The notes beneath the pieces were generated by a model. It was not told the origin of the DNA, searched no databases, and saw only the letters and a program-made list of their open reading frames with translations. Source: a virus (Duplodnaviria > Caudoviricetes). Taken from it: a stretch of DNA of 64,000 nt. Positions 1 through 62,930 of the stretch are shown one piece after another (the first letter of the stretch is position 1; each line of letters begins with the position of its first letter). The stretch is from positions 32,001-96,000 of the IMG/VR virus record IMGVR_UViG_3300030376_006203. One strand, given 5' to 3'. The translations under genes were made by a program, and so were the position numbers.

Positions 1-174
1 ACCTATTATGAAAAATGGATATACTATTCTCATATCTGGGTCTGTGGCGTTTAGTGCCAAAGTCATACTAGCAATAATATTTACGACTGTGCTGATCATT
101 TCTAACCAAAAGCATAATTTATCTTGCTGGTAAGATTCTTTGAAGTAACCGATTATTTTATTTGTCTCGGCCAA
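1..174 (-). CDS. membrane protein, truncated at window edge
   Basis: Read manually: TTG start at 174, ...YFKESYQQDKLCFWLEMISTVVNIIASMTLAL...IVYPFFIIG; hydrophobic and open to position 1. Confidence 0.5.
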   Translation of the reverse strand, partial: MAETNKIIGYFKESYQQDKLCFWLEMISTVVNIIASMTLALNATDPDMRIVYPFFIIG

Positions 175-418
175 CTGCAATAATTAAATTTTCTAATGAA
201 TCAAAATCATCTGAATATTTGTGCCATTCACCTTTATGAGCAATTTTAATTGCTTTATTAATAAGTGCTGGTTTGATTTCTAATTCTTCTGCTACTGCTT
301 TCACAGTGTCTTTTAATCCAGAGTTTAAATCTTCTACTTCAGAAAGTACGTTTGCACCTTCATCTATAATCCTCTTTAACTTTGCTTGTTCTTCTGGACC
401 GTATGTTCTGCCTGCCAT
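158..418 (-). CDS. T4 DsbA-like / GapR-like dsDNA-binding protein
   Basis: 86 aa helical protein, KDTVKAVAEELEIKPALINKAIKIAHK resembles T4 dsbA. Confidence 0.6.
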   Translation of the reverse strand: MAGRTYGPEEQAKLKRIIDEGANVLSEVEDLNSGLKDTVKAVAEELEIKPALINKAIKIAHKGEWHKYSDDFDSLENLIIAVGRDK

Positions 419-429
419 TTTATTCTCCT

Positions 430-1023
430 TTATATTTTACTATGGTCTATACCTGAGTAGTCTCCGTAACTTCCTGTTTCGTGTGCTACTTTCAGATAAT
501 CAATCATGTTTTCTGGTGTTGATTCTACATATGGGTCGTCATCTGTGCCTTCATTGTTTATGCCAGGCTCTTGCCACCATTTTTCTACTACACCGTCATT
601 TACAACTGCCATGTATCTCCAACTTCTATTTCCGAAGCCTAAATGGTTTTTACCTATAAGCATACCCATAAATCTTGTAAAGTTTCCAGAACCATCTGGA
701 ATCATTTTTACGTTTTCAATATTCATTCTGTCTGCCCATGCGTTCATTACAAATGAATCATTTACTGACACACAATAAATTTCGTCTATTCCCATGCCTT
801 TAATACTATTGTACTCTTTTTCGAAACCTGGAAGTTGTTGACTTGAACAAGTTGGAGTAAATGCTCCTGGTAAACTAAAAATTACTACTCTTTTACCTTT
901 GAAATATGAATCAGTTGTTGCGTTATGCCATTCTCCACCTATAGCACAACCGTTGTCAGTTTCAACAGCGTCACCTGTTCTCACTCTGAATGTTACTTTT
1001 GGAATTTTAAATCCTTCTATCAT
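430..1023 (-). CDS. peroxiredoxin (Prx5/redoxin family)
   Basis: VVIFSLPGAFTPTCS peroxidatic motif, VSVNDSFVMNAW, RSWRY. Confidence 0.93.
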   Translation of the reverse strand: MIEGFKIPKVTFRVRTGDAVETDNGCAIGGEWHNATTDSYFKGKRVVIFSLPGAFTPTCSSQQLPGFEKEYNSIKGMGIDEIYCVSVNDSFVMNAWADRMNIENVKMIPDGSGNFTRFMGMLIGKNHLGFGNRSWRYMAVVNDGVVEKWWQEPGINNEGTDDDPYVESTPENMIDYLKVAHETGSYGDYSGIDHSKI

Positions 1024-1059
1024 AAAATACTTTACCTTTTTTAAAAATTAATAATGCTT

Positions 1060-1088
1060 ATTGTACTTAATTTTTATGATAAAGTCAA
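1060..1088 (-). promoter_or_regulatory. sigma70-type promoter for peroxiredoxin
   Basis: TTGACT-17 nt-TACAAT. Confidence 0.65.
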
Positions 1089-1090
1089 GA

Positions 1091-1744
1091 CTATTTTTTG
1101 GCTGGACTGTCTTTTTCTTCGTAGAAGAAATCGTTTGTATCACCAAAAGTCACTGTGCTTTCGTTTTCACAGAAAAACTCTTTGGTGCTGACTTGGAAGT
1201 CTGGTCTTTTTAGTTCTGATGGAGTAAGTGATTGTTCATACCAAAGCATTCTATTGTTTGGTTGTGCGAAGTATTGACCATTTATTAGTCTACCAAAATT
1301 GTGTTGTTTGTGTTCGCTTGGTACTTCAGAAACTCCTGTATTCACAGTGTTTGGATCACCGTGACAGGCATCTATTGTGAAAAGATATTCACCTTTCATT
1401 CTACCACCGCCTTTAAGCATTATTTCAACATCACAATTCTTAAGCATTGATTTAGTCCACACTTGAATATTGCTACTGAAACTGTCCCATAGTTCTAGTG
1501 TACCGAGTGGTAATTGTTCTTCTTCTTTGATGTCTTTACGCCATACAAATGCGGATAAAGGAAACTTGTCGAAACAAGCACCATACTCTGGTAGGTATGC
1601 TTCGAACATTAATGCTCTACCTTGTACTGATTTTACAGCAAGAATCACTGCTTCTGCAAATTCGCCGTGGCCTCTTTCAAGGTCGTGTAAGTATTCTTTA
1701 CGAACCCAACATTTTGTATATGGAATATTTGCAACAAAATTCAA
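1091..1744 (-). CDS. conserved phage hypothetical protein
   Basis: 217 aa ORF, strong SD AGGAGGAGG before TTG start, ATAAATA late-promoter motif at 1774-1780. Confidence 0.75.
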   Translation of the reverse strand: MNFVANIPYTKCWVRKEYLHDLERGHGEFAEAVILAVKSVQGRALMFEAYLPEYGACFDKFPLSAFVWRKDIKEEEQLPLGTLELWDSFSSNIQVWTKSMLKNCDVEIMLKGGGRMKGEYLFTIDACHGDPNTVNTGVSEVPSEHKQHNFGRLINGQYFAQPNNRMLWYEQSLTPSELKRPDFQVSTKEFFCENESTVTFGDTNDFFYEEKDSPAKK

Positions 1745-1939
1745 GACACAACCTCCTCCTTGTTAATATAGTGTATTTATTTAAAATTGTATCTTGTGGT
1801 GATTAAACTGTCTTGTGACTGTTTCTGATAGTCCATCCATAAAAGTTTACTTTACTGGCAACTTTCATGTAGAACCTTGTAATGTCCTTTTTGACTGGCA
1901 TCAAGTATGGTACATTTCTTTGTCTGTTTCTTTTGATCA

Positions 1940-2344
1940 TTATTTTTTCTTCTTTTTAGTGGCAACATTGATTGCTTTACCACGTCTATCTGGGTTTGGA
2001 TCTTTTCTACGTTTTCTACGAGCCGCAGATGCTCTGCCTTTTTTGCCTAATGCGTATGCTTTTTTGGCAGGTAAACATTTAGGCTTACCTTCTCCATCTG
2101 ATTTACCGCCACATGAACCTCTGATTTTACCACCAGGACCCATGCGGACCCATTTTTGTTTGAACCATTTTTTAAGATTTTCGTCTAAGGATTCGTCTAG
2201 TAGTATATCGTGACAGTTTACACAGAAGTCTATGTGTTCTCTTTTAACACAGTTGGGTACTCTTTTTCCGAACATGGTCTTCATGCCCTTCTTTTCGTAA
2301 CCTTTCCAACAACGTGTTCCTTCTAGGATTTCGTTTACCTTCAT
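1940..2344 (-). CDS. putative internal head protein with basic Cys-pair mini-domains
   Basis: Likely start MKVNEILEG at 2344; RCWKGY..PNCVK and LKKWFKQKWV..PKCLP modules typical of marine T4-like phages. Confidence 0.65.
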   Translation of the reverse strand: MKVNEILEGTRCWKGYEKKGMKTMFGKRVPNCVKREHIDFCVNCHDILLDESLDENLKKWFKQKWVRMGPGGKIRGSCGGKSDGEGKPKCLPAKKAYALGKKGRASAARRKRRKDPNPDRRGKAINVATKKKKK

Positions 2345-3156
2345 TACTTTTTCTTGCTGTTGCCCCAATTAGCCGCGCCTTTTTTACGACACTGTACTAG
2401 AGCACCAGAGGCGTATGCCGAAGGCCAAACTTTGTATCTTGCTTTTACTTTGTGATAGCAGGCATCTTGCTTCTCTGCTAATTTTTCGAATTCTTCTTCT
2501 GTGATTGGTTTACCAACAAAATCTTCTAGAACTGCTTCAGTCTTTTTTTTTGAAGATTCTTTTAATTTGTTTTGTAATTTATTTGATAATGATTCTTTGT
2601 AGTCTTCTGTTTTACAATCTGGATGACAATTACAATTTGGTGTGCAGTTTCCTCCACAAGCACAATTCTCATCACAATTACAAGCCATTGATTCTTTAAC
2701 TTGTTCAACTGCTGGTTGTACTGCTTCTGCTGACTCACTTGATGAAATCATTTCGTATTCCATATAGTGTTTTACAGAACTCAAGTAGTCTGCCGCTTTT
2801 GTAATCTTAGCCGCTACCCAACCTTCTAAGCCTTGTTCTTCTGAAACATTTTTTAACAATTCATGAAGTTTAATTGAATACTTTGCCGCTTTGTATAAAT
2901 CTGATCTTGCCATTTGTACTTCATGATCCATCTCGGCTTTTTGTGCCATTAATGCTAGATCTTCTTGTACAGATTCTTTTTTCTTTTTGTTGTGTTGATC
3001 TTTAATTTTTCCTATTTCTTCAGCACTTGCGCCTTTACCTGCCGCACTTTGAATTTTTTTCATACCATCTTTGCCGTATTTTTTAACACCGGCTTTGTAC
3101 ATAATTCCGCTTTCGTCTGTTTCTTGGTCTTTTTTAATTAAATCTGAATGTTTCAT
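2344..3156 (-). CDS. putative internal head (poly)protein
   Basis: Modules DHEVQMARSDLY, a Cys-rich stretch and KQDACYHKVKARYKVWPSAYASGALVQCRK; GATAAATA promoter 5 nt before ATG. Confidence 0.65.
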   Translation of the reverse strand: MKHSDLIKKDQETDESGIMYKAGVKKYGKDGMKKIQSAAGKGASAEEIGKIKDQHNKKKKESVQEDLALMAQKAEMDHEVQMARSDLYKAAKYSIKLHELLKNVSEEQGLEGWVAAKITKAADYLSSVKHYMEYEMISSSESAEAVQPAVEQVKESMACNCDENCACGGNCTPNCNCHPDCKTEDYKESLSNKLQNKLKESSKKKTEAVLEDFVGKPITEEEFEKLAEKQDACYHKVKARYKVWPSAYASGALVQCRKKGAANWGNSKKK

Positions 3157-3161
3157 AATAA

Positions 3162-3169
3162 TATTTATC
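3162..3169 (-). promoter_or_regulatory. T4-type late promoter (GATAAATA)
   Basis: Variant of T4 TATAAATA that recurs before many genes in the window. Confidence 0.65.
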
Positions 3170-3395
3170 TTTTAATTGGAGCACCAAATAATGATGTTCC
3201 TTTCATATCTAAAGCATTATCAGTTGGTTTCTGCATTTTTGCTTTTGGTGGTTTAGCAGAAGCACCTTTTTTGCCATAGGCATCACGTGCTTTTTTATCA
3301 CCTATCGCTATGTGTGGATTAGCCACTGTGGCTATATTGCCCGCCGATGTAGCGCCTGCTGAAGCAACTTCTGATATGATGTCTCTGATACGCAT
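3165..3395 (-). CDS. small putative internal head protein
   Basis: MRIRDIISE-VASAGATSAGNIATVANP; start refined to 3395. Confidence 0.6.
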   Translation of the reverse strand: MRIRDIISEVASAGATSAGNIATVANPHIAIGDKKARDAYGKKGASAKPPKAKMQKPTDNALDMKGTSLFGAPIKR

Positions 3396-3399
3396 AATG

Positions 3400-3582
3400 T
3401 TATTTACCACCTTTGTGTAGATTCTTCACACGTTTGGATGTGCTGTATTTGGCGTGAGGTACTTTGAGGTTCTTTTTGCCGTATATGTCGCCCACTTTGT
3501 GCGTGTATACAAGTTGGGCAGGATCCAAACCATAATGGTAGTCCACACGGGCCTCCACTATTTTGAAATCCTTATAACGCAT
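3400..3582 (-). CDS. small basic putative internal head protein
   Basis: MRYKDFKIVE-A then Lys-rich body; start refined to 3582. Confidence 0.55.
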   Translation of the reverse strand: MRYKDFKIVEARVDYHYGLDPAQLVYTHKVGDIYGKKNLKVPHAKYSTSKRVKNLHKGGK

Positions 3583-3677
3583 ACTACTTGAACTTTGCTT
3601 TGATTTTGTCCACAAGCAAACTTACTTTAGAACAAGTGTACCAAGTTTTTAACTTTTTCTTTGCTTTTTTCCACATA

Positions 3678-3920
3678 TTACAATAAGTTTTTAAGGTTTA
3701 ATATACCGTTGTCAATAATTGCTCTTTCATCAAGACTACCACCGGCACCTACTTCGCCTTCACCTGATCTCAATGCGTCTAAGCCTTCTATGTATTTTTC
3801 TTCTGTGATATCACCAGCCTCAAATCTTGTTTTCAAAGACAATACTGAAGAAGCAGTCTCCTTAACCCAACCTGATCTAGAATCACGAGCATTCACTAAT
3901 CTATCTAAAAATTCAGCCAT
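3678..3920 (-). CDS. hypothetical protein
   Basis: Start MAEFLDRL after AAGGA SD and CATAAATA motif. Confidence 0.55.
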   Translation of the reverse strand: MAEFLDRLVNARDSRSGWVKETASSVLSLKTRFEAGDITEEKYIEGLDALRSGEGEVGAGGSLDERAIIDNGILNLKNLL

Positions 3921-3946
3921 TTTGTTTCCTTTTTGTTTGTGTGTAT

Positions 3947-4261
3947 TTATGCTTTTTTGCGTCCTGACTTCATATTCGCACACCAGTGGTACATTTTGCC
4001 CTTTTCACCACCATGCTTCTTGGCTTTTGCCCTTAATGAAGTTACTGATCCTGAACAACTAGCACCTGCTTTTTTTACTCTACCTGGACGTGATTTTCCT
4101 TTTACTTTGCCATCAGCAAAGTTTTCGTTGGCTTTATTGTTACCAACATTCTTAAAACCATATCTATTGTTAGGGCCATATCCTTTTTTATGAATAAGTC
4201 CCATGGGTTTTGCCGTGTGAGGCATTACTCTATTGCGTTCTATAATATCTATTATCTTCAT
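3947..4261 (-). CDS. basic putative internal head protein
   Basis: MKIIDIIE N-terminus; ENFADGKVKGKSRPGR..SC..HWCANMKSG module. Confidence 0.6.
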   Translation of the reverse strand: MKIIDIIERNRVMPHTAKPMGLIHKKGYGPNNRYGFKNVGNNKANENFADGKVKGKSRPGRVKKAGASCSGSVTSLRAKAKKHGGEKGKMYHWCANMKSGRKKA

Positions 4262-4983
4262 CTCAGTCTAGGTGGACGACCTTTTTTGTCTATTTTAAAT
4301 CCAAATTTTGCCGCTTGTCTTTGTGTTTCGCCAGGCTTAACATCAGCGGTTGTATTTTGTTTTGTAATAATTCCAACACCTTCTTTTTTAGATTGTTGTT
4401 GTTTTGTGTAAGTTTCCAATGCTGATTTAACTTTGCTTAATGAATCTCTATTTGCTTGATACAATATACCAAATCCGCCAGCCTGTTGCCAACGTTGAAT
4501 ATTGATAGGTCTATCGTCAATTAAAATGTTTGGTACTTTTGTTTGCTTGTTTACAGCATACGATTCTTTTCTGCCAGTGATAATTGTTTCAGCAGGCTGT
4601 TCAATATTGTTACTAATCCAAACTTTTTTATATTTTGCTGAATTGGCATTATCGCCTCTTAATGGTGAAGAACAAATTGAAAAAGTTCCACCTGTAAAAT
4701 CTTTAACCATTTTTATTAATTGATCAGCAGATGGAAATTTAGGTAATGTTTCAAAGAAATTAGTTCCTGTAATTTTCTGTATAACCTCAGATTTTAAATC
4801 TTTAGTTCTATCAGAAGTAAGTTCCTTCCAGTGCTTTACACCGTACAGTTTTTCAAGACCACCGAAGAAGTCAGCCATCACTCCGTCCATGTCCAAATAT
4901 ACAATTGGTTTCTTTTCCATATCTTCATTATACAACTTTTTGTTGTATTTGTCAATATTGGATTCTAAGTCCAAAATACGCAT
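4258..4983 (-). CDS. HAD-family 5'(3')-deoxyribonucleotidase
   Basis: VYLDMDGVMADF (HAD motif I), ILIDDRPINI (motif IV). Confidence 0.85.
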   Translation of the reverse strand: MRILDLESNIDKYNKKLYNEDMEKKPIVYLDMDGVMADFFGGLEKLYGVKHWKELTSDRTKDLKSEVIQKITGTNFFETLPKFPSADQLIKMVKDFTGGTFSICSSPLRGDNANSAKYKKVWISNNIEQPAETIITGRKESYAVNKQTKVPNILIDDRPINIQRWQQAGGFGILYQANRDSLSKVKSALETYTKQQQSKKEGVGIITKQNTTADVKPGETQRQAAKFGFKIDKKGRPPRLR

Positions 4984-6992
4984 TAATTGAAACCTAAATG
5001 TGTGACTTCCGGATATTTTGATTTGATTTTTCTAGCAAGTTCATTGTGTAGTTTTACTTGCTGATTCATATAACCTTCAGGTTTACCACCTGAAATCATT
5101 GTAGGACCATCTGGATTTTTATCTACTGTTGTTGGTTCTTCTGGTGATGGTTTACCAATATTCTTTTTTAACCATTGTGTTGATACACCAATAAATTCGT
5201 CAATTGGTACAGCACTCATGTCTTCAAAGTCAGCAGGATAACCTAATGCTGATAAAAATTGTCGCATACTAGCATTACTCAAATAAGGAGTATCTAACTC
5301 TTTGTCTTTTGCCCATGCCATTGGAAATTCAAAAACAGTTGTTTTTTCTCCATCTAATTCTTTTTCAGTTTTAAAATAAGGGATCATTGAAGCACCTTCT
5401 TTAACTGAATCTTCATTATCAATAGAAGCCGCTACTGGTTCAGGTTGTTGTCCAATTTGCTGTGTTGGTTCTTGATCAGGACTTAAATTTACTTTACCAA
5501 GTTCAACAGCAACTTTATTTAAATTTCCTTTTAATGTGCCTGCTGATATTTTTGATCCTGGCGCAAACATTTTCTTCAAATCTCCTTGAGCATCCATTCT
5601 TTTAAATGCATCAGGATGTTTAGGCGCCACATATTTTCTTAGATATGCTACAACTAAATCTGCAGGATATCCTTGAGATACATCTGTTTGATTTAAACCT
5701 ACCACTGTGTTGATGTCTTTGAATAAAGTCTGCATCTGAACTTTTGCTTGATCATCTGCTTGTACTTTTGCCGCTGTTGCTGGATCATACAATGCTTTCA
5801 CTTGATCCGGAACAATTTTTCTACCTGCCGCTTTTAAAGTGTCTAACCAACCTTCATCTAAATAAGTTCCTTCGTTTACTGATTCGTTGCTTATGCCGTG
5901 TGATGCTAATACTATACTCATCGCATCTGCTAGTCCTACTTTTTCTTTCATGTTCATTTGTTTTATATCACTAGTGTCACCGTGATCATTAAAAACTTTT
6001 ATGTATGTGTCTATGTCTGCTGGATCAAATCCTGCTTTGTTTAAAATATCTTCACTTCTATAATCTAAGTCTTCAGTTGTTGGTTTATTCATTGTGATAG
6101 TAAACTTATCACCTTCAAAGTCTACATCTTTACCTGTAATTAATTTGTACATTTTAGCCAACAGTCTATTGTCGTACTCTGGTCTTCCGTGTCCTTTTTG
6201 CGGTTCTTTAATTTTGTCTGCTAACATTTGAACAAATGCTGATTTGTCTAAACGCATTTCACCTTCGTTAGTGTCTTGTGACATACCTTTATTTTTTCTG
6301 TTTACATAGTAGTCACTCATTTTGCCATAGCCATGTCTCCAAGCCATTTGACGCAATCTTGTGTCATCAAAATCTTTGAATCTGTCTGCTAGTTCTTTGT
6401 CTGACATATGAGCAAGTTTTTCTTTGTGTTTGATAATACTTGCTGGCATTCTTTCAGCAACTTTTGTTTGATGATCTTCCCAAAAATCTCCAGCCATGTC
6501 AATCACATTATTGTAAGTGTCAACAAATTCTTCCATGTCCATTGATTGTGCATCATCCGCCATGTGTTTGTATTGTTGTATGTCAACTATTCCATATAGT
6601 TTGTCAAAACTTTTAATATGTGGATAATGACCTTCTTCAATAGAATTTTCTGTTCTTAATGCTGATCTTTGAAATCCTTTTGCTAAAAATTCTTTTTCAC
6701 GTTCTGCTGGGATCATTATAGTCTTACCATCTTTGTGAACGTACAAAGTCTTGCCCATGGCACCCATTCTTTTCATATCGGTAGCCTGTACGCCATCTTC
6801 TGATTTTGGTAAGTTTTTATCTGCCCAGGCATCTAGAGCCGCTTTACGTTTCATGAAGTTTAATTTTCCAACTTGAGCATACTGTTTAGGATCTTTTTGT
6901 ATGTCCTGTAAGGCTTTCATCAATTCACGATAGTGTGCTTCGTCTCTTGGCTCTACGTATTTGAACTCTCTTAAAAAATCTATTAACTTCAT
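4983..6992 (-). CDS. large multi-module putative internal head polyprotein
   Basis: MKLIDFLRE N-terminus; many [ILV]-x-E linkers (SIEE, VAE, VNE, LDE, VKE). Confidence 0.6.
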   Translation of the reverse strand: MKLIDFLREFKYVEPRDEAHYRELMKALQDIQKDPKQYAQVGKLNFMKRKAALDAWADKNLPKSEDGVQATDMKRMGAMGKTLYVHKDGKTIMIPAEREKEFLAKGFQRSALRTENSIEEGHYPHIKSFDKLYGIVDIQQYKHMADDAQSMDMEEFVDTYNNVIDMAGDFWEDHQTKVAERMPASIIKHKEKLAHMSDKELADRFKDFDDTRLRQMAWRHGYGKMSDYYVNRKNKGMSQDTNEGEMRLDKSAFVQMLADKIKEPQKGHGRPEYDNRLLAKMYKLITGKDVDFEGDKFTITMNKPTTEDLDYRSEDILNKAGFDPADIDTYIKVFNDHGDTSDIKQMNMKEKVGLADAMSIVLASHGISNESVNEGTYLDEGWLDTLKAAGRKIVPDQVKALYDPATAAKVQADDQAKVQMQTLFKDINTVVGLNQTDVSQGYPADLVVAYLRKYVAPKHPDAFKRMDAQGDLKKMFAPGSKISAGTLKGNLNKVAVELGKVNLSPDQEPTQQIGQQPEPVAASIDNEDSVKEGASMIPYFKTEKELDGEKTTVFEFPMAWAKDKELDTPYLSNASMRQFLSALGYPADFEDMSAVPIDEFIGVSTQWLKKNIGKPSPEEPTTVDKNPDGPTMISGGKPEGYMNQQVKLHNELARKIKSKYPEVTHLGFN

Positions 6993-7198
6993 TTCTTTCT
7001 GCTCCTAAACTGTACTGGTCCTGTCATATATGGTTTAGAAAACCATAATTTAAACCAGTCAGGATCTCCTGGTTTTAAGCCTAATTTTCTTTCTTTTTTC
7101 TTTAAAGCGGTTGCCGTAGCACTAATATTTTCACCCATAGAATCTTCGTTGTATGGTTTATAGATGCCTGCCAAACGTTTTAAATCGTCTATGTTCAT
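6989..7198 (-). CDS. small hypothetical (head-associated) protein
   Basis: MNIDDLKRLAGI; KPGDPDWFKLWFS motif. Confidence 0.6.
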   Translation of the reverse strand: MNIDDLKRLAGIYKPYNEDSMGENISATATALKKKERKLGLKPGDPDWFKLWFSKPYMTGPVQFRSRKK

Positions 7199-7200
7199 AT

Positions 7201-7776
7201 TTATACTGTCACAGGATCTAATTGTAGTCCTGTTCTCACCTGGTTATACATTTCTTCTGCTGTTTTAGGGTCTATAGGGACAGCATTAATAAATGTTCTT
7301 TTGTCCCCACGTGCCGCTAAATCACGCATTTTTGAAGCACTCATGCCTTCTAATCCTTGTGCGTCAGGATCTCTTTCACCTGCACTTACTACTTTGATAG
7401 AATTAAAATTGTAATCTCTGCCATTGTACTTGTTTAATAATTCATTGAATTCATTTACTCTATCAGAACCTGCCACATATATTATATCTGTGTAACCCAT
7501 TTGTTCCAACTTCTGCATTGCTTGTACCCACGTTCTTACTGCTTTGTCTCCAACCTTAATCATTGGAAACATTTTTTGAGCAAAGGTTAATTTTTGTGAA
7601 AATGATAATGGATCTGTTTTTGCGTTTTGAGTATGCGTAATAAAGATAAAAGGATCACCAGGCTGTGCTTTGATAACTTCCCCAATTTTTTTATGTCCTG
7701 CTGTTGGTGGATTCATTCTGCCAAAGGCAAAAACAGCGGTTTTACTAGGTGCTTCTAAAATCTCCGTGATTAGCAT
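7201..7776 (-). CDS. cytidyltransferase-like (HxGH-superfamily) nucleotidyltransferase
   Basis: FGRMNPPTAGH, VAGSDR, GMSASKMR. Confidence 0.85.
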   Translation of the reverse strand: MLITEILEAPSKTAVFAFGRMNPPTAGHKKIGEVIKAQPGDPFIFITHTQNAKTDPLSFSQKLTFAQKMFPMIKVGDKAVRTWVQAMQKLEQMGYTDIIYVAGSDRVNEFNELLNKYNGRDYNFNSIKVVSAGERDPDAQGLEGMSASKMRDLAARGDKRTFINAVPIDPKTAEEMYNQVRTGLQLDPVTV

Positions 7777-8084
7777 TACTGCTCCTCATTTTCTTTTTCG
7801 GCATCCATCATTCTTTGCATTAACAAATTTTTATCTTCTGGAGTAATTTGATCTGCTATTTGTTTTGGAATTTTGTATTTCATGCAGTATTCTTTGATGC
7901 ATGAATCTATTAAAGGCATAACTGCTTCATTATCGCCAGTTTGTTTACACTTGTTCATTGTAGGATAATAATTTTTTCTGTAAAAATCATCATCATTCAT
8001 CATGTAGAAATAAACGTCATCCATTAGATCATAATCTAATTTAGGTTCTTTTTCTATATGATTAAATTCAGTTAGTCTTACCAT
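7776..8084 (-). CDS. hypothetical protein
   Basis: 102 aa ORF translationally coupled to neighbours. Confidence 0.6.
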   Translation of the reverse strand: MVRLTEFNHIEKEPKLDYDLMDDVYFYMMNDDDFYRKNYYPTMNKCKQTGDNEAVMPLIDSCIKEYCMKYKIPKQIADQITPEDKNLLMQRMMDAEKENEEQ

Positions 8085-8665
8085 TTTCTACAACTCCAAT
8101 ATCTTGCTTTTGTTCTAGGTCCTGGATTAGCACAGTTGTGTCTTGCTCTAAAACTTCTACGTCTAGCAGGATTAGATTTTTTAATTCTCATATTAGGATC
8201 ACCAAAGTTTACTTTTTTAATGTTTTTTGTTTTTGGATCTCTCACATACACTTTAAACTTTTTTACATCACCCTGCATTGGCTTGCCTAATTTTACTTTA
8301 CGTCCTCTGTATTCTGCTTCGTCTAATGAATCATCTTCATCAAACCACATATCACCATATGCTTCAAAAAAGTCATCACCTTCGTATGTTTCTTCACTTG
8401 GATCATTGTCACTTACTTCTAACACAAAGTCTTCAAGACCTTGTTCTTTGTAAAGTAATTCTATATCCTCTGCTAAATCATCTGATTCAACTTGTTCTAG
8501 TTGTCTGTGTAATTCAACAGTTAATACGTGCTGACCATCTACATTTTCGAAAGTCACATATTTCGTTTCATCTTCTAGTAAGCCAATTGTGCTTAAATTT
8601 ACTGCTGTGTTGATTTCATCCTCTGTAAAAGGAGTGTCTTTAATTATGTTAAAATAGTGATGCAT
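8078..8665 (-). CDS. acidic N-domain plus basic C-terminal module protein
   Basis: LDE-AEYRGRKVKLGKP..KKVNFGD..RRSFRARHNC..YWSCRKW module. Confidence 0.65.
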   Translation of the reverse strand: MHHYFNIIKDTPFTEDEINTAVNLSTIGLLEDETKYVTFENVDGQHVLTVELHRQLEQVESDDLAEDIELLYKEQGLEDFVLEVSDNDPSEETYEGDDFFEAYGDMWFDEDDSLDEAEYRGRKVKLGKPMQGDVKKFKVYVRDPKTKNIKKVNFGDPNMRIKKSNPARRRSFRARHNCANPGPRTKARYWSCRKW

Positions 8666-8669
8666 AGTT

Positions 8670-9023
8670 TTAATGATTTAATAATATTGAGTTAATTGTT
8701 CCATCTGTGTAAGTTATATGTGCTCTTACCCACACAAAATTTCCTGTAAAGTTAAAAACAAAAGCACCATCTTTGCCTGCTGTTGTACTGTCATATGTAG
8801 TGCCATCTACATCAAACCAATCAGCATCTGCTGGAGTAGTTGCTAGTGTGCCTTGTATTTTAATTGTGCCTGCAACACCGTTAACATTCATTTGAACAGT
8901 GTGAAAACCATCAGATCTACCGTAGTATCCATCACCTTTAAACTTTTCACCCACAACTGTTTCAACCGTGCTATCGCCCGGATGCGTAGTTGCTGGTAGT
9001 ATTATTTCGCTTGTTGCTGGCAT
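8670..9023 (-). CDS. putative virion beta-sandwich protein
   Basis: 117 aa, FNFTGNFVWVRA; CTAAATA late motif 7 nt upstream. Confidence 0.55.
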   Translation of the reverse strand: MPATSEIILPATTHPGDSTVETVVGEKFKGDGYYGRSDGFHTVQMNVNGVAGTIKIQGTLATTPADADWFDVDGTTYDSTTAGKDGAFVFNFTGNFVWVRAHITYTDGTINSILLNH

Positions 9024-9057
9024 ATGTGTATATTTAGCCTATTGGGCGGTTTGATGT

Positions 9058-11307
9058 TTAGGCTTGTTTCTCAAGCAATTTAACACCGTCGCCTATGTCT
9101 AGTGCTAGTTTTTTATCTTTTACTGTGACCTTAACTACACCACCGTTTTTAAGCGATCCAAACAGTAGTTCTTTTGAAAGATCCTTTTTAATTTTGTTAT
9201 CAATCAATCTCTGCATAGGTCTAGCACCCATTTTGTCATCATAGCCATGCTCAACCAAATAGTCGATTGCTTCATCTGTAAGTTCTAAAGCAACATCTTT
9301 TTCTTTTAATTGTGTTTTTAAATCTAGCATAAATTTGCCCACAATTTTAATTAATACTTCTTTAGCAAGTTTTTTGAATACAACTGTGCCATCTAATCTA
9401 TTTCTAAATTCAGGAGCAAAGAAACGTTTCATATCTTTATCATCATATTCTACATCTTTAACTGCGTTGAAACCCATTACGTTTTTGTCTGCTTGATCGG
9501 CACCTAAATTAGTTGTTAGTATCAAACATATATTTTTAGCACTGGCTGTTTTACCATTGTTTCCTTGTATAGAACCTTCATCCATTATTTGTAATAATAT
9601 TTGTGAAACATCAGGGTGTGCTTTTTCTACTTCGTCTAATAGCAACACACAGTTTGGATATTCTTGTAATTTTGTAACTAACAGTCCTGTGTTTTCTTCA
9701 AACCCTACATAACCTGGAGGTGAGCCTATTAGTTTAGCCACTGCGTGTTTCTCTTGATATTCTGACATATCAAATCTTACAAGTTTAACACCTAATTGTT
9801 CTGCCAACTGTTTTGCTGTTTCAGTTTTACCACATCCTGTTGGACCCATAAACACAAATGAACCTATAGGTTTATTATCACGTTTCAAGCCTGCTTGAGC
9901 AACTAACACTTTATCAACAACCATATCTATTGCTTCATCTTGTCCGTAAACATTTGCTTTCATGTTTTTAGATAGATTTGCTAGGTTACTAGATTCTTTT
10001 TCAGCAATTGATTCTACAGGCATTTTAACCAATTTAGATAATTCATATTGAATAGATTCATCATTTACTGTTCTATCTGATTGCTTTTCTTTTAGATTAA
10101 ATCTAGAACAAGCCAAGTCTATCAAGTCAATTGCTTTATCAGGCAATTTTTTATCTGTTTGATATTTTATACTTAATTTTACTGCGGCTGTGATAGCATC
10201 ATCAGTAATTGTCGCATTATGAAAGTCTTCGTAATACTTTTTAAGTCCTTGTAAAATTTCTAGTGTTGTTTCTTTGTTTGGTTCATCTACAGTAATTCTA
10301 GCAAAACGTCTCATTAATGCTCTGTCTTTTTCAAAATACTTTCTGTATTCTTCCCAAGTTGTAGAAGCAACAACTTTAAGTTCACCTTTAGTCAACACAG
10401 GTTTCAATAAGTTTGCTAAATCATTGGCAGTGTTTCCACCACCGCCTGCACCTGCTCCTGATATATTGTGTGCTTCATCTATAAAGCAAATTGCTTTGCC
10501 TTTTTTCTTCAAACCATTAAGAACCATTTTGAATCTTTCTTCAAAATCACCTCTGTATTTAGAACCAGCCAACATTGCTCCAATATCTAAATTGTAAACT
10601 TCATATCCTTTTAAAAATTCAGGACAAGTTTCATTTACTATATTGAATGCTAAACCTTCTGCTATTGCTGTTTTACCTACGCCAGGATCACCAACAAGTA
10701 TCACATTGTTTTTCATTCTTCTTCCAATAGTAAGTGCTATTTGATTTAGTTCATCTATTCTGCCAATTACAGGATCTATTTTTTTCTTTTTAACTTCAGC
10801 ATTCAAATTAGATGTATATTTGTTTAATGCTCTTTTAGTTTCAGTTTGATCAACTTCATCTTCAAATATTTCTTCTATTTCACTATGTAGGTAGTCCATA
10901 AATTTTTCTTTATCAACTTTTGCTTGTACAAGGAAATAATATGCCCAACTTTTTGTTTCACTCATTAAACTTAAAAATACATCTGTTAAGTCTATATTTG
11001 TTCTACCACTGAATAAAACTTGCGTGAATGCTCTGTTTAGCACTCTTTCAACACTAATAGTTTTTTTAGGCTTGTATTTGGCAACTGATAATTTAATGCC
11101 ATCTAGTTTATGATCAAGATATGTAATCAGATGTGTTTTTAAATTATCCACATCAGTGCCGTAACCTTTTAATATATTACAGAATTTTTCATCTTCGCAC
11201 ATAGAAAACAGCATATGTTCAAGAGTAACATATTCGTGCTTGTATGACTTGGATAAATTTACTGCTCTATCAAATACACTTTGTAAAGCACCACTAGGTT
11301 CAACCAT
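9058..11307 (-). CDS. clpA: ATP-dependent Clp protease ATPase subunit ClpA
   Basis: Clp N-domain (HEYVTLEH), two Walker A motifs GDPGVGKT and GPTGCGKT, RFDMSEY, GSPPGYVG, MGF ClpP-docking loop, no ClpB middle domain. Confidence 0.93.
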   Translation of the reverse strand: MVEPSGALQSVFDRAVNLSKSYKHEYVTLEHMLFSMCEDEKFCNILKGYGTDVDNLKTHLITYLDHKLDGIKLSVAKYKPKKTISVERVLNRAFTQVLFSGRTNIDLTDVFLSLMSETKSWAYYFLVQAKVDKEKFMDYLHSEIEEIFEDEVDQTETKRALNKYTSNLNAEVKKKKIDPVIGRIDELNQIALTIGRRMKNNVILVGDPGVGKTAIAEGLAFNIVNETCPEFLKGYEVYNLDIGAMLAGSKYRGDFEERFKMVLNGLKKKGKAICFIDEAHNISGAGAGGGGNTANDLANLLKPVLTKGELKVVASTTWEEYRKYFEKDRALMRRFARITVDEPNKETTLEILQGLKKYYEDFHNATITDDAITAAVKLSIKYQTDKKLPDKAIDLIDLACSRFNLKEKQSDRTVNDESIQYELSKLVKMPVESIAEKESSNLANLSKNMKANVYGQDEAIDMVVDKVLVAQAGLKRDNKPIGSFVFMGPTGCGKTETAKQLAEQLGVKLVRFDMSEYQEKHAVAKLIGSPPGYVGFEENTGLLVTKLQEYPNCVLLLDEVEKAHPDVSQILLQIMDEGSIQGNNGKTASAKNICLILTTNLGADQADKNVMGFNAVKDVEYDDKDMKRFFAPEFRNRLDGTVVFKKLAKEVLIKIVGKFMLDLKTQLKEKDVALELTDEAIDYLVEHGYDDKMGARPMQRLIDNKIKKDLSKELLFGSLKNGGVVKVTVKDKKLALDIGDGVKLLEKQA

Positions 11308-11791
11308 TTACAAATCCTTTTAATATTTTTTCTTGTTTCTTTTTTGCCATTTCCAAACGCATTTTTGAAACTCTTTGATCAAAGGTAATGCCTTGAAGAT
11401 GGTCGTATTCATGTAAAAATACTCTTGCATGAAAACCTTCTAACTTAATTATACATTCTTTTTGCTGTGTGTCAAGGTATTTTACGCCTATAATATCAGG
11501 TCTTTTTACTTTCATAAACAGTCCTGGAAAACTTAAACACCCTTCCATCATTTCAACTTTATTTGTGCTTACTTCTGTAATCATAGGATTAATTATTGTC
11601 ATAGGTTTGTCTTCACCCATAATAAAAATTTGGGCATCCAATCCTACTTGATTAGCCGCTAATCCTACACCTTCATATTTTTTCATTATATCAAACATTT
11701 CGGTAGAAATTTTTTCTGCGTCCATAGTATTGAAATCGAAATCCTTTACTTTCTTTTCTAAAAATTCATCAGGTGCTTTAATTAATTTCAT
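11300..11791 (-). CDS. def: peptide deformylase
   Basis: [18 protein letters not shown] motifs. Confidence 0.95.
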
Positions 11792-12626
11792 TTTTAATCC
11801 TTGTTAATGTTTCTACCCATTCTGCCTTGCTTACTGACGGTATATCTGCTTGAATTGTCAAATATATATTTCCTCGTCTTCCGCCTCTTGTAGGCAAGCC
11901 TTGTTCACTAATACTTAATACAGTGCCAGGTTGTGTGCCTTTAGGAATTGATATTGCCAAATTTCTTCCTTCAAGTGTTGTGATTGTGTGTTTTGTTCCT
12001 AACATTAGGTCAAATACATTTACTCTTTCAATACAATGTAAGTTCACTCCATCTCTTGAATACTTTGCGTGAGGTCTAATTTTTACTCTAACAAGTAGAT
12101 CTCCTCTAGGTAAATGCTTTTGTAAATCATCTCCTAATGATGGAAATTTTATTGTGCTGTTGTTTGCTACTCCTTTTGGTAAACTTAAATTAACACTTTG
12201 CTCACGACCATTTGTCAGTCTATATGAAGCAACTAGTTCTTTGCCTTTTAAAACATCTTCCAACTCAATCTGTGCTTCTATTATGATGTCTCTATTTTTT
12301 CTTGGCTGTTGTTGTCTTCTTCCGAATGGACTTCCTCCTCCGAAAAATTGATTGAACACATCACCTATATCTTGTGGAAAGTCATCAGTTCTAAATTCAT
12401 ATGATCTATGTCCGCCTTGATTAGCATTTGGAGTCGAACCAAATCTATCATAATAGGATTTCTTTTGCGGATCTTTTAAAGTATCATATGCCTCATTTAA
12501 TTTTTGAAATTGAGCACTGTCGCCACCTTTATCAGGATGGTGTTTCATGGCTTGCTTTTTGTATGCTTTTTTAATTTCTGCCTCAGATGCGTTTCTATTC
12601 ACGCCTAATGTTTTATATAAATCCAT
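11778..12626 (-). CDS. dnaJ: DnaJ-class co-chaperone (type II, no Zn finger)
   Basis: J domain with HPD, G/F-rich linker, DnaJ C-terminal domains. Confidence 0.9.
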
Positions 12627-25242: not shown

Positions 25243-28200
25243 TTATACATTATAATGATAGTTAGGAAAGAGTATGTATTGGTCGGCACTATTGCCCTCT
25301 GTTCCTTCTACCACGTATCTATCAATTTCAAAATTTATATTTTTGATATCAAATCCACTGTTTTTGACTGCTAGGGCAATGCTTTGGCTAGTTCCTGGCT
25401 TACAATAACATAATGGCACTGCTGTTGTGTAACCTAATGCTGTGTTGCTGTCTTGTGCAGTACGCATCCAAAGAGGTAAAAGACCTCCTTCAGTAACTCC
25501 TAGTGCTTTGATATTATCTCTCATGTTAGAAATATTGCTTATGTATCTTAACTCATCATCACTCATACTTGCTTTTAATAAATCACTATCGACTTTTATA
25601 ACAGAATTCTTTGGTCTGAATCTAAAAGGATCACCATTGATTTGTTCTACTGTTCCAACCACTAAATCAGGACCTGACTGCATATCTATTTTTAATTCTC
25701 CATTAGGCACATCTACTAATAATCTACCAGTCCTAGCAAATATTTCTAAACTTGTTCCTACACCTGAAACAGATAAAGATGAATTTGCTTGAGCAAAAAT
25801 AGTGTAAGCAGAACCTCCCACATTTAATTTTGTTGAATCATCTGTAACTTCTATTTGTGTTTGATTTATTTTAATTGTACTTTGTGGTTTTATCTTTAAT
25901 GATTTCCTAGTATCATTTTTATTTAAATCTCTTACATCAATTATATCAGCATAAACTAATTCATAAGCAATGTCGTTCGTGCCAGGGTATTTGGCTACTG
26001 CTGTTTTAATATCTCCAAAATTAAATTTACATCTTTTGTGATTTTTAGATACTGCTGTAACATAGTTGGCAACAGATTTCTTTTCAATTCCTGAATAAAC
26101 TAACATCTTCATGTTTTTCTGTAATCCAAACATAGGATCATTTGGTCTATAAATTTTATCTATAGCAAAAATATTTGTGTTACTGATAAAGTCTTTAAAA
26201 TAACTTCTTTGTGAGGATTTAAGTAAAGGTTGTGCGTATAAATCTGTAAAAGTTTTTGTAACATTTGTATCAATAGCCAGTGTAAATGTTCTTTCAACAC
26301 TGCTAAATCCAAATCTATCTTGTGCTCTTACAGTAAATGAATAACTTTCATCCACAGTTGTAGTTCCACCGTCTAAAGTTAATAGGTTATTATCAAAAGA
26401 AGTAATACCTGGTAAACTGTTTTCGCTGTACAATCTAACATTGCCAACTATTTCTCCATCCAATGATAAACTCAATCCTGGAGGAAGTGTGCCACCTGTT
26501 AAAAGATATTTCATTTTGGCATCTGCGACTGTGCTGGTTGCTTCTAATTTTAAATGACTTGTTAGATTTGCTTTTAATGTGCCTAATGAAGTTGCAGTTG
26601 TCCATGTAATTGTGCTGTCAACTTCTCCTAATACTTTGACTGTGAAAGTTTTTGTTGCTGTAGGTTCAGTATCTGTACTGTTTAACAAAAAGTTTTTAGA
26701 TTCAGGTATATCTTTGAATGCCGCAATACTGATATTTTGTTCGTTTACAAAACTATCCACAAGAGGAATATTCAATACAAGTTTTTCCATTGCTGTGGCA
26801 TTGGCTATACCTTGTAGTGCAGGTTCACCTTCTGCTAATAATGATTGTATATCTGAAATTTCATATTCACTAGAACCAATTCTTAATGTTCTCCCTTTAT
26901 ATTTGTCTTTAGATATTCTGTTGTAAACAAATATTTCATTGTTTGCTCTTGTTATAGGAAGTTGTGCTCCGGTTCTTTTCAATTCAATAGGATCATAAAC
27001 AGTGCCAGTATAAACTTTTAAATCATTGGCAGTTAAATTTCTGTTCAAAGTTAACAAATCATAATCTTGATCTGTGCCATCTACACCTAACACTGTGTAT
27101 TCTTCACTGTTGATTGTAATTTTTTCTCCAACTAAACTTTCTAAATCGTCTAATCCATCTGCTTGTCCCACAGGTAACTTTTGAATTTTTAATTTGTCCC
27201 CGCCTTGTTGTTGATCTTCATAAGGAGTAATAACCACAGTAACAAGGTCACTACCTATATTGGCTCTGACAGCACTTACTGTGAATTTATATTCTTTGCT
27301 CACAGCAGGTTGGTAAGGAACTCTGCCTGCTATTTCTCCAGTCAAAGCATCCAGTGTCATTCCTGGCGGAATAATTGATTCTGAATTATCGTTATTTGTA
27401 TTTTCAAGTATGTAACTGACTTTTCCAGGCACTGTGTTTGGATCATACAGTTCTAAAAATATTGTAACGTAGTTGTTGGCTCTTTTAAAACCTAAGTCAG
27501 ATGGTGTTAACCATTGCGGAGTTCTTAAAAATGTGCCATCTGATGTGAATACACCCGTACCCACCTGCATGATAGTATTGTCTGCTCTTAAGAAATCATC
27601 ACCTACAACAAATATTTTGAATTCTCTACTTATTGTGGAATCTCCATCAGTTACATTAACTGTAAAATTATAATAACGATTTAATTTTCGTTGATTTCTA
27701 TTCTGTACTTGCTGATTGTACAAGTCTGAAAACTCTTGTACATCAAAATAAAAACTTTTATTAGCAATTGATCCTTGTAATCCAAAATCAAATGGAGCCG
27801 ATGCGTAGTCATTTGAATCATAATATCCTGTGCTAGATAAAATGTCTAGTGCTAATATAGGATCTACTACTCCTGAAATTTTTCCAGTTGAACTTAATGA
27901 CAATCCAGGAGGTAATTCACCTCCACCTTCTGGAATGTAAAATTCTAATGTTGTATTTGCACTCAAATCAGCATCTTCAGCCTCTAATTGAAAATCTACA
28001 AATGAACTATCTAAAATGAATAGTTGTGAATCTTGTCCAATTGGAAGTGTACCTGCTGGAGTGATCCAAGTAGGTGCGTCTGGACCTTCGATATTTACTG
28101 TGAATGTTCTATCTTGAATTCTAGTATCATGCTTGGCTCTTAAACAAAATTCATATTGAGTAGAACGTGAAACTTGAAATGGTGTTCCTATTAAATTAGA

Positions 28201-28347
28201 ACCTTCTAATCTTAATCCAGGAGGTATTGTGCCTGCTATTGTGGTAATTGTGTCTGCTCCTGAAACTGGTAATGTGATTGTTGTTGGTACTCTTTCTTGA
28301 TATGTACCTAAATTAAATCCCGTCTGAACTGTCCATAAATCATGCAT
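25243..28347 (-). CDS. baseplate wedge-like protein with Ig-like (He_PIG) repeats
   Basis: Repeated LPPGLSL..G.I.G motifs, 1034 aa, late motif at 28356. Confidence 0.7.
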   Translation of the reverse strand: MHDLWTVQTGFNLGTYQERVPTTITLPVSGADTITTIAGTIPPGLRLEGSNLIGTPFQVSRSTQYEFCLRAKHDTRIQDRTFTVNIEGPDAPTWITPAGTLPIGQDSQLFILDSSFVDFQLEAEDADLSANTTLEFYIPEGGGELPPGLSLSSTGKISGVVDPILALDILSSTGYYDSNDYASAPFDFGLQGSIANKSFYFDVQEFSDLYNQQVQNRNQRKLNRYYNFTVNVTDGDSTISREFKIFVVGDDFLRADNTIMQVGTGVFTSDGTFLRTPQWLTPSDLGFKRANNYVTIFLELYDPNTVPGKVSYILENTNNDNSESIIPPGMTLDALTGEIAGRVPYQPAVSKEYKFTVSAVRANIGSDLVTVVITPYEDQQQGGDKLKIQKLPVGQADGLDDLESLVGEKITINSEEYTVLGVDGTDQDYDLLTLNRNLTANDLKVYTGTVYDPIELKRTGAQLPITRANNEIFVYNRISKDKYKGRTLRIGSSEYEISDIQSLLAEGEPALQGIANATAMEKLVLNIPLVDSFVNEQNISIAAFKDIPESKNFLLNSTDTEPTATKTFTVKVLGEVDSTITWTTATSLGTLKANLTSHLKLEATSTVADAKMKYLLTGGTLPPGLSLSLDGEIVGNVRLYSENSLPGITSFDNNLLTLDGGTTTVDESYSFTVRAQDRFGFSSVERTFTLAIDTNVTKTFTDLYAQPLLKSSQRSYFKDFISNTNIFAIDKIYRPNDPMFGLQKNMKMLVYSGIEKKSVANYVTAVSKNHKRCKFNFGDIKTAVAKYPGTNDIAYELVYADIIDVRDLNKNDTRKSLKIKPQSTIKINQTQIEVTDDSTKLNVGGSAYTIFAQANSSLSVSGVGTSLEIFARTGRLLVDVPNGELKIDMQSGPDLVVGTVEQINGDPFRFRPKNSVIKVDSDLLKASMSDDELRYISNISNMRDNIKALGVTEGGLLPLWMRTAQDSNTALGYTTAVPLCYCKPGTSQSIALAVKNSGFDIKNINFEIDRYVVEGTEGNSADQYILFPNYHYNV

Positions 28348-28377: not shown

Positions 28378-29055
28378 TTAGATAGAACCAAAGTCAATAC
28401 CAGTTGCTGTAGGCGACGCTATTGTGCCCATATTCACTGGATTGAATGATTCAAGCCACTGTAACAAGTTGTTTACAGGGTTTTGTACACCACCAAAGTC
28501 AAAACCAACTAGACTGTCTAAGTCATCAATGTCCACACCTTTTACTAAACCATTAAAATTGTTACCTGTAATTGTGCCAACGTTGATCATATTGTTACCA
28601 TCAGCGTCAAGTGTTGCTGATAGAGTTGGTGAAGTTTCATTTGCTAGTGCTGAATTAATTGTTATATTTTGTCCTGATCCTGATGTTGTTGTACCACCTG
28701 TACCATTAACAGTAATTTGACCTTGTGATCCTATTGGATTCAAAGAACCTACATCAGTTGTGAATAAAATACTGACTATACCTGAAGATGTAATTGTAAT
28801 TTGATTATTGTCAGCACTTAAAACAACATTAGGTCCTGCTTTTAAATTTTTGAAAACTAAATTATCGTTTGATTTTTCAGCAAACACACCTTTTGTTGTA
28901 CCATCATCTGCTAGTCTGTTTGATGCTGTTGTGTTTTCTGCCTGACGAGCATCTAATTCGGTGAAGTTGTTGTTAACCTTTACAAAGGCTTCTCTCAGAT
29001 CATCACCTGTGCCGTCGTTTGCTAGTGTTCCTATGTTGATTGTGCTAATTGCCAT
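28378..29055 (-). CDS. tail fibre/baseplate connector protein
   Basis: T4 gp9/gp10-like N-terminus INIGTLANDGTGDDLREAFVKVNNNFTEL. Confidence 0.75.
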   Translation of the reverse strand: MAISTINIGTLANDGTGDDLREAFVKVNNNFTELDARQAENTTASNRLADDGTTKGVFAEKSNDNLVFKNLKAGPNVVLSADNNQITITSSGIVSILFTTDVGSLNPIGSQGQITVNGTGGTTTSGSGQNITINSALANETSPTLSATLDADGNNMINVGTITGNNFNGLVKGVDIDDLDSLVGFDFGGVQNPVNNLLQWLESFNPVNMGTIASPTATGIDFGSI

Positions 29056-33531: not shown

Positions 33532-34407
33532 TTATCCGGTTGGTGCTGTGTTCTTATATGGGTGACTGACAGGTAAATTACTTGTTAATCCCCATTTGTG
33601 AGCAAGATAACCTTCTGCTTTTTCTATGTAAAATTTGTTGCCACTGCCAAGGCCAGGTAAACCTTGTGACACCATAAATTCAAACAGTTTACCGCCAAAG
33701 GTTTGACTGCCTCTGTTTCTGAATATGTTCATTCCTGCTGTGGTTTTAATACTGTTGTCGTAATCTGTTTCTGGTGTGAAGGCGTTGTTACCGTTCACTC
33801 TTACACCAATTTCACCGTGCGATTTGTCAAAGTAACATAATATCATAAAGTTAGTATTTGGTTGGATAGGTGTCTGGGCAGTAAAGTCTATCAAGTTACC
33901 TGCGTTACTGCTGATCCTGTTTGAACTCAAACCATCAAGATCCAGTTCACCTTCAAAATCGTTTACATTACCTGCACTGATGGCATAATCTCTGTTAGGC
34001 GTTTCTGTGGTATCAAAACTCCATATTGAATCCTTGCTGTTGTTCACACTGGCAATAGTGCCTGCGAATGCGGCCCAATGGTTACCACCGTTGGCAATCG
34101 CAAAAGAACCTGTGCTGAGATATTCATTTGAAGCGTGATCAAACACAATGATTTGTTTGTTGTCTTCTGTGCCCTGTTGTGGATCGTTGTTGATGTCGAT
34201 GACAACTCCTGAATTTCCAGAAGCATCAATGATATTTGTTAATGCGTTAGTGCCTCCGGCTGGCGAAATAGTGGTTGTTGAGGTATCGCTTGGATTGAGC
34301 CACATTCTTAGATCGTTTTCTAACATTGAAGGAGACCAATCACGAGTGAAAGCACTTGCTCTACGTCCTGCGAAAAAACTACCTGTTGCGGTTCCTATTA
34401 GAGGCAT
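33532..34407 (-). CDS. concanavalin A/LamG-like lectin domain virion protein
   Basis: WSPS..LRMWL..beta-rich body..EGYLAHKWGL..LP..HPYK C-terminal motif. Confidence 0.65.
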   Translation of the reverse strand: MPLIGTATGSFFAGRRASAFTRDWSPSMLENDLRMWLNPSDTSTTTISPAGGTNALTNIIDASGNSGVVIDINNDPQQGTEDNKQIIVFDHASNEYLSTGSFAIANGGNHWAAFAGTIASVNNSKDSIWSFDTTETPNRDYAISAGNVNDFEGELDLDGLSSNRISSNAGNLIDFTAQTPIQPNTNFMILCYFDKSHGEIGVRVNGNNAFTPETDYDNSIKTTAGMNIFRNRGSQTFGGKLFEFMVSQGLPGLGSGNKFYIEKAEGYLAHKWGLTSNLPVSHPYKNTAPTG

Positions 34408-62787: not shown

Positions 62788-62930
62788 TAAAATCCTTCCG
62801 CAAACATTACCTTGGCATTTGGAAATCTTGCTTCAACTATTTGTTTGGCTTCTGAGGCAGTCCTGCCTTCTTCAGCAACTTTCATTGGTGCTTTGTTTTC
62901 CAGTGTTACCCAAAAGTAGTATTTGTTCAT
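62787..62930 (-). CDS. small hypothetical protein
   Basis: Manual 47-aa ORF MNKYYFWV..EAKQIVEARFP, coupled on both sides. Confidence 0.55.
   Translation of the reverse strand: MNKYYFWVTLENKAPMKVAEEGRTASEAKQIVEARFPNAKVMFAEGF

Follow-up and report, generated by a model that had tools for sequence, protein, structure and literature searches.

Unrelated neighbouring genes of an IMG/VR phage share an N-terminal peptide that is probably a T4-type capsid-targeting tag

The 64,000-nucleotide stretch of viral DNA analysed here (the window, to which positions refer unless another locus is named) comprises bases 32001-96000 of a single 148,056-bp IMG/VR record (IMGVR_UViG_3300030376_006203) of an uncultured ocean phage, and between its positions 1940 and 8665 lies a run of open reading frames (ORFs), most of which begin with a similar short peptide, referred to below as the tag. 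Nearly all genes of the record lie on the minus strand. The eight N-termini that a first-pass annotation had singled out in this run were all recovered there at predicted starts, which mostly overlap or abut the preceding stop codon, as happens in operons whose translation is coupled. The dnaJ-like, peptide deformylase (def) and clpA-like genes directly upstream of the run form an overlapping operon (9058-12626) whose order is kept in relatives. The record is 41% complete according to CheckV, so that the full genome probably measures about 360 kb. Its DNA polymerase (polB) is of the T4 type and closest, at 45-49% identity, to those of the jumbo phages Phosso, Atu_ph07, Vibrio phage 2.275.O and the 121Q/Rak2 group, members of the wider T4 superfamily like the phage itself; a Megablast search of window positions 1-12000 against cultured phages returned no match at the nucleotide level.

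The tag comprises 8-10 residues, laid out as Met, a basic residue, a hydrophobic residue, any residue, an acidic residue, two hydrophobic positions, any residue and Glu, and in most carriers it ends in I/L/V-x-E at residues 8-10. We scanned the 232 predicted N-termini of the 148-kb record with the core pattern ^M[KR][ILVMFYA].[DE][ILVFM] and found 12 matches, compared with a mean of 0.53 (maximum of 4 in 2000 trials) when the first 12 residues were shuffled with their composition kept; at internal Met positions the pattern occurs twice in 1069 (a per-position background of 0.2%). Six strict matches fall within 1940-6992, with two looser ones directly after (7201-7776 and 7776-8084), a second cluster of five lies beyond the window, at window-equivalent positions 83373-87951, and one stands isolated at window-equivalent 103218. 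A leave-one-out profile built from the tags recruits 7201-7776 as a further carrier. The core analysis puts the number of carriers at 12-14, and at least 14 tagged proteins are counted on the fragment. Codon bias at the translation starts of an AT-rich genome, or chance, might be thought to produce such a pattern, and Met-Lys starts written in A/T-rich codons are indeed common genome-wide. The shuffles rule out composition bias, the matches are concentrated in two loci, and the core motif does not occur in the replication, chaperone, Clp or tail-fibre genes of the record, all of which makes this explanation extremely unlikely. The observation made in the first-pass annotation is confirmed.

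After removal of their first 12 residues, the tagged proteins show no BLASTP match to one another at E<0.01, in agreement with the earlier claim that the neighbouring carriers are unrelated, and the tag codons of the carriers differ at synonymous sites. Taken together, these observations indicate a signal at the protein level that is carried by unrelated proteins: the lack of similarity rules out paralogy of the carriers, and the synonymous differences rule out a DNA repeat as the source of the tag. A Sec or Tat signal was also rejected, because such signals have either a hydrophobic core of at least 7 residues behind a basic N-region or a twin-arginine motif, and the tags are charged at positions 2, 5 and 8-9 and contain no hydrophobic run. 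The isoelectric point exceeds 9 in 11 of the 14 tagged proteins (31% in the whole proteome), which matches the basic internal proteins of phage T4 and is counted here in favour of a T4-type function. The ORFs of the locus are listed in Table 1; a Pfam 'OAR motif' match in 3947-4261 was disregarded as a 16-residue low-complexity match.

Table 1. ORFs and promoter-like motifs between window positions 1940 and 8665
Feature	Position	Strand	Remarks
195-residue ORF, untagged	8078..8665	-	acidic, x-x-E-rich N-terminal half; basic C-terminal module with Cys pair (phrog_7595)
102-residue acidic ORF	7776..8084	-	tag offset by one residue (MVRLTEF); L005 orthologue with canonical tag
191-residue NMNAT-like cytidyltransferase	7201..7776	-	tag MLITEILE, then Ala; nucleotidyltransferase domain from about residue 12; Pfam and PHROG matches
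69-residue basic ORF	6989..7198	-	partial tag MNIDDL
669-residue mosaic protein	4983..6992	-	tag MKLIDFLRE; V-x-E linkers repeated at module junctions
241-residue NT5C/HAD 5'-3' deoxyribonucleotidase	4258..4983	-	tag MRILDLE; 24-residue extension before enzyme domain; family matches; G004 orthologue tagged
104-residue very basic protein, net charge +21	3947..4261	-	tag MKIIDIIE
CATAAATA motif, T4-late-promoter-like	3944..3951	-	upstream of ORF 3678-3920
80-residue acidic ORF	3678..3920	-	without full tag; kept in relatives
60-residue basic ORF	3400..3582	-	tag MRYKDFKIVE
76-residue basic ORF	3165..3395	-	tag MRIRDIISE
GATAAATA motif, late-promoter-like	3162..3169	-	6-13 nucleotides upstream of ORF 2344-3156
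270-residue ORF, module chain	2344..3156	-	partial tag MKHSDL; C-terminal Cys-basic module 74% identical to part of S-CREM2 ORF160
134-residue very basic protein, net charge +26	1940..2344	-	tag MKVNEILE fused directly to Cys-basic mini-domain, also inside S-CREM2 ORF160

The tag is conserved beyond this record. A syntenic locus with tags is kept in nine IMG/VR contigs, one of which (L005) has nine tagged genes, and the orthologues share the same start positions. As the best proxy for the head genes of this lineage we used G004, a 328-kb relative that is 92% complete and whose polB is 65% identical to that of the record. Among its 410 genes there are 20 strict pattern matches, one of which is a true Tat signal and hence a false positive, and the record-derived leave-one-out profile places 29 of the 410 N-termini above the 99% null, where 4 are expected. 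The nucleotidase, the 104-residue basic protein and the 76-residue protein are tagged in both the record and G004, with 41-50% identity in their bodies, and the 120 homologues in the database that are closest to the cytidyltransferase keep the tag pattern in about 40 spellings. An identical cytidyltransferase is found in the protein database on a contig of 171 kb. Other tagged ORFs of G004 encode a GH19 lysozyme-like protein and a protein with a weak, below-cutoff match to PARP/ADP-ribosyltransferases.

The locus is also strongly mosaic. The 669-residue protein varies from 388 to 844 residues in close relatives (loci L001-L006), with whole modules gained, lost and permuted, and the junctions in this family carry repeated acidic (D/E)(D/E)(S/T)-V-x-E linkers; where a module is inserted, in three relatives, V-x-E linkers are repeated on both of its flanks. 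The C-terminal domain of the same protein follows S-V-K-E here and is a separate gene in L005, with a tag that ends in I-T-E. Similarly, the conserved C-terminal module of the 104-residue protein adjoins the final Glu of the tag in two relatives and lies behind an internal A-N-E in the record, and the module of the 76-residue protein comes after I-S-E in the record and after an internal V-K-E in G004, in an alignment that spans the site. These junctions fit cutting by a Glu-specific protease. The first-pass annotation had described a large, modular tagged locus, and its modularity stands, with modules shuffled among relatives; its tagging is incomplete: 4 of the 13 ORFs lack a full tag, three of them having a partial motif (2344-3156, 6989-7198 and 3678-3920) and one having none (8078-8665). 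Such mosaicism, in which modules move between ORFs and ORFs are split or fused among relatives, invites the reading that the peptide is a relic of recombination, left without present function when modules were shuffled behind one ancestral gene start. Against this stand the synonymous differences in the tag DNA, the persistence of the pattern in the 120 homologues while the residues change, and the finding that each lineage has its own tag dialect across unrelated genes; we take these as signs of selection on the peptide itself and consider a functionless relic very unlikely.

G004 encodes both an untagged ClpS, of the kind that the record carries at 62927-63232, and a tagged ClpS paralogue within its tag cluster (L183:6461-6871, minus strand), which indicates that the tag is portable. 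The tagged paralogue, together with the dnaJ-def-clpA operon upstream of the tag locus, could also be read as a sign that another phage machine recognises the tag, either ClpA/ClpP/ClpS in proteolysis or DnaK/DnaJ/GroEL as chaperones, for timed degradation or folding of the carriers. This reading is highly improbable given that the same kind of tag occurs on homologous genes of T4-like phages and on a head-module gene between portal and protease, and that homologues have been found in virions (both described below); moreover, the residues after the putative cut behind the terminal Glu (G, V, A, R, S, F and A) are not, as a set, those of ClpS N-degrons, which expose Leu, Phe, Tyr or Trp.

Mullaney and Black reportedly described in 1996 the capsid-targeting sequence carried by the T4 internal proteins IPI, IPII and IPIII. 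We took the T4 N-termini from NC_000866 and ranked 89 T4 ORFs by the tag profile of the record, allowing a shift of one residue. The T4 proteins concerned begin with MKTYQEFIAE (IPII and IPIII), MAKINELLRE (gp24), MELITELFDE (Alt) and MLKEQLIAE (gp22); gp24 ranks first of the 89, IPII and IPIII fifth and sixth, and IPI eleventh. The N-terminus of T4 vs.6 (L073:1558-1920) scores as high under this profile as the tag of IPII and IPIII. Hydrophobic-x-Glu is the cleavage motif of the T4 prohead protease gp21, and the tag ends in such a site; in T4, replacing the Glu at the tag end by Asp prevents cleavage and leaves packaging intact. The T4 propeptides of 10-20 residues are capsid-targeting sequences that are cleaved after Glu; in the tag of IPIII, residues 4 and 7 are important to targeting, and residues 8 and 10 to the cut behind Glu, and the internal proteins of T-even phages are a diverse set with only the capsid-targeting sequence in common (PMC9026906, PMC3012670, PMC5694885).

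The tag has several features in common with the T4 system (the tags of IPI, IPII and IPIII and the 10-residue propeptides of gp24 and Alt). In both cases an N-terminal peptide of 8-10 residues, in which two hydrophobic positions come after an acidic residue and the end is hydrophobic-x-Glu, is found on unrelated and mostly basic proteins encoded at hypervariable loci, and the phage is a member of the wider T4 superfamily with relatives that have a gp21-type protease. Unlike in T4, the dialect found here is one residue shorter than the tag of IPII and IPIII and closest to the gp24 propeptide, the carriers are more numerous (at least 14 in 41% of the genome) and among them are an NMNAT-like enzyme and a nucleotidase as well as mosaic proteins whose internal linkers are of the cleavage type; furthermore, the head genes are not on the fragment. 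The giant phages of the phiKZ type (SPN3US, phiKZ; PMC5694885) also have many proteins inside the head that are processed after Glu by a related prohead protease, but their propeptides mostly exceed 100 residues, use the motif A/S-x-E and share no short N-terminal tag. The literature on capsid-targeting sequences in connection with cyanophages, marine phages or jumbo phages yielded no description of such tags beyond T4 and phiKZ-type phages, and Petrov 2010 does not mention the capsid-targeting sequence.

The head genes of relatives provide a further link between the tag and the prohead. The gp21-type protease (PF03420, Peptidase S77) is present in all seven relatives tested, namely the four nearest cultured jumbo phages by polB and three marine T4-like phages (Kyanoviridae), and the head module of G004 includes it as well, with a tagged 67-residue ORF directly after the major capsid gene. 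In Vibrio phage 2.275.O, an 80-residue ORF between portal and protease, the position of gp67 in T4, starts with MKLVELFE. From 80 protease loci in IMG/VR we assessed about 46 loci of the jumbo clade with an ORF of 55-100 residues between portal and protease; 24 of these ORFs start with the strict motif and 19 with a relaxed one, and in the other three it lies at an internal Met, which may be where the ORF really starts. A head-morphogenesis gene of the jumbo clade thus regularly bears the motif, and this suggests that the cargo would enter the core carrying the core protein's own N-terminal peptide. The small acidic ORF of the jumbo relatives thus shares its start motif with the cargo tags; in T4 the N-terminus of gp67 is looser, and the jumbo ORFs are named by gene position alone, the present fragment having no gene in that position. 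When candidate ORFs near the left end of the record were scanned against PHROG, they matched an HNH-endonuclease family (phrog_1314) and an ATPase and no head genes. A longer contig of the same lineage with head genes was sought among the IMG/VR relatives by polB, which mostly measure less than 50 kb, and the contigs of 108 kb and 49 kb contain no protease.

The evidence for the presence of such proteins in virions comes from homologues in two cyanophages. In marine T4-like phages, the cytidyltransferase, the nucleotidase and the Cys-basic modules cluster between the helicase and primase genes, where they also have tag-like starts. In purified virions of S-CREM2, mass spectrometry detected ORF154, a cytidylyltransferase, and ORF160 (PMC10665884); ORF154 is related to window 7201-7776 (E 3e-21), and ORF160 holds both Cys-basic modules of window 1940-3156. 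In S-SCSM1, ORF89-93, 95 and 97 of the helicase-primase region are annotated as virion proteins detected by mass spectrometry (PMC9602691), a set that amounts to nearly the whole syntenic cluster, and its ORF91, an NMNAT 38% identical to 7201-7776, starts with MKSFLQFLKE, ten residues that much resemble the T4 tag. The cyanophage virion proteins (S-SCSM1, PMC9602691; S-CREM2, PMC10665884) and those described here have in common a homologous cytidyltransferase (32-38% identity), the neighbouring Cys-basic modules and 5'-nucleotidase, and enzymes that begin with a similar tag; they differ in that the cyanophage dialect places Phe at position 4 of the tag, longer fusions are frequent among the proteins, and the papers (PMC9602691, PMC10665884) make no mention of a targeting tag or of N-terminal processing. 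Mass spectrometry shows just association with the virion, and head-shell proteins such as T4 gp24 bear the same kind of propeptide without being ejected. Hence the carriers might be virion proteins whose peptide is a mere assembly handle or propeptide removed by the protease, or steers them to some part of the virion outside the DNA-filled interior, rather than an address for ejected cargo. We regard this as unlikely, because the carriers consist of small basic proteins and of soluble enzymes with no shell, tail or baseplate folds among them, and because the tail and fibre proteins of this phage are untagged.

An 8-mer resembling the T4 late promoter, [GC]ATAAATA, occurs in 32 copies on both strands of the record and lies no more than 80 nucleotides upstream of 26 genes, among them tail-fibre genes (with copies upstream of 25243-28347 and 28378-29055), two genes of the tag locus and two of the second cluster.

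Considering this evidence together, we judge it probable that the common N-terminus represents a T4-type tag, both capsid-targeting sequence and propeptide, at a cargo locus that is expressed late, and packaging, cleavage and ejection of the tagged proteins in this phage are what we infer from it, with ejection alongside the DNA suggested purely by analogy with T4. The interpretation given in the first-pass annotation is partly supported: the likeness it proposed, to T4 capsid-targeting sequences and to a Glu-specific prohead-protease site, is borne out independently by the profile transfer to T4, the gene in the gp67 position, the module junctions and the virion homologues. Under this interpretation, the tagged genes would be expressed alongside structural genes, and the peptide of 8-10 residues would bring each protein into the prohead's scaffolding core, probably by imitating the N-terminus of the small core protein encoded at the gp67 position. 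The gp21-type (Peptidase S77) protease would then cut after the Glu of the tag and at hydrophobic-x-Glu linkers inside the mosaic proteins, and the mature products would remain inside the head alongside the DNA and would probably accompany it into the host. The predicted cargo consists mostly of small, very basic and probably DNA-binding peptides, together with the NMNAT-like nucleotidyltransferase and the 5'-nucleotidase.

Several observations weigh against this interpretation. The 148-kb fragment has no detectable prohead protease (PF03420), scaffold or capsid gene, and no head module could be linked to this exact lineage. The profile misses T4 Alt, which scores poorly, and a clean hydrophobic-x-Glu end is lacking in some tags, for example those of 4258-4983 and of some cytidyltransferase homologues, which end in Gln. 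Hydrophobic-x-Glu is short and common, and the junction cases were chosen by eye after inspection. ATAAATA also precedes nrdA-like and clpP genes and is thus not specific to structural genes. Finally, enzymes of this kind recur in cyanophage virions, where abundant non-structural proteins may co-purify (PMC9602691, PMC10665884), and the S-CREM2 supplement lists no peptide-level data.

If the tag works as in T4, the proteins that abundant uncultured marine jumbo phages bring into the cell ahead of any gene expression can be predicted by a simple rule based on sequence. The predicted cargo would then include the NMNAT-like enzyme that has been found repeatedly in cyanophage virions without an explanation, and the mosaicism of the locus would be accounted for, as any module placed behind a tag or between cleavable linkers becomes cargo. 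The tie between the cargo tag and the N-terminus of a head-core protein would also suggest how the T4 targeting sequence is recognised. We tentatively raise a broader, more doubtful possibility, that in a clade of ocean phages of about 330-360 kb a single address peptide, copied from the phage's own prohead-core protein, loads a large and exchangeable head cargo, amounting to a pre-made first-strike proteome delivered with the DNA. Tagged proteins number at least 14 here and about 25-29 in G004, and such a cargo might include the NMNAT-like enzyme, of the NAD-salvage type, and the nucleotidase here, the ClpS paralogue and the GH19 lysozyme-like protein in G004, and mosaic polyproteins that the head protease dices at V-x-E linkers into small basic peptides.

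The second tag cluster is headed by a very acidic protein of 396 residues (net charge -36; window-equivalent 81759-82949, L015:17759-18949, minus strand), which lies behind a GATAAATA motif and has a short module in common with ORF92 of S-SCSM1, which is among the proteins detected in virions; the acidic protein may act as a partner of the core or scaffold kind. A tagged protein of 377 residues in the same cluster (window-equivalent 86818-87951, L016:4818-5951, minus strand) is a full-length member of DUF6267 and also matches the N-terminal part of phrog_455, the later part of which is a cytidyltransferase domain. The tail-fibre-like proteins at 28378-29055, 34407-36188 and 36188-42583 (minus strand) have a different N-terminal module in common, INIGT...DGTGD..R.AF, which corresponds to the beginning of PHROGs for baseplate connectors and tail fibres and probably serves them in common as a domain for docking to the baseplate.

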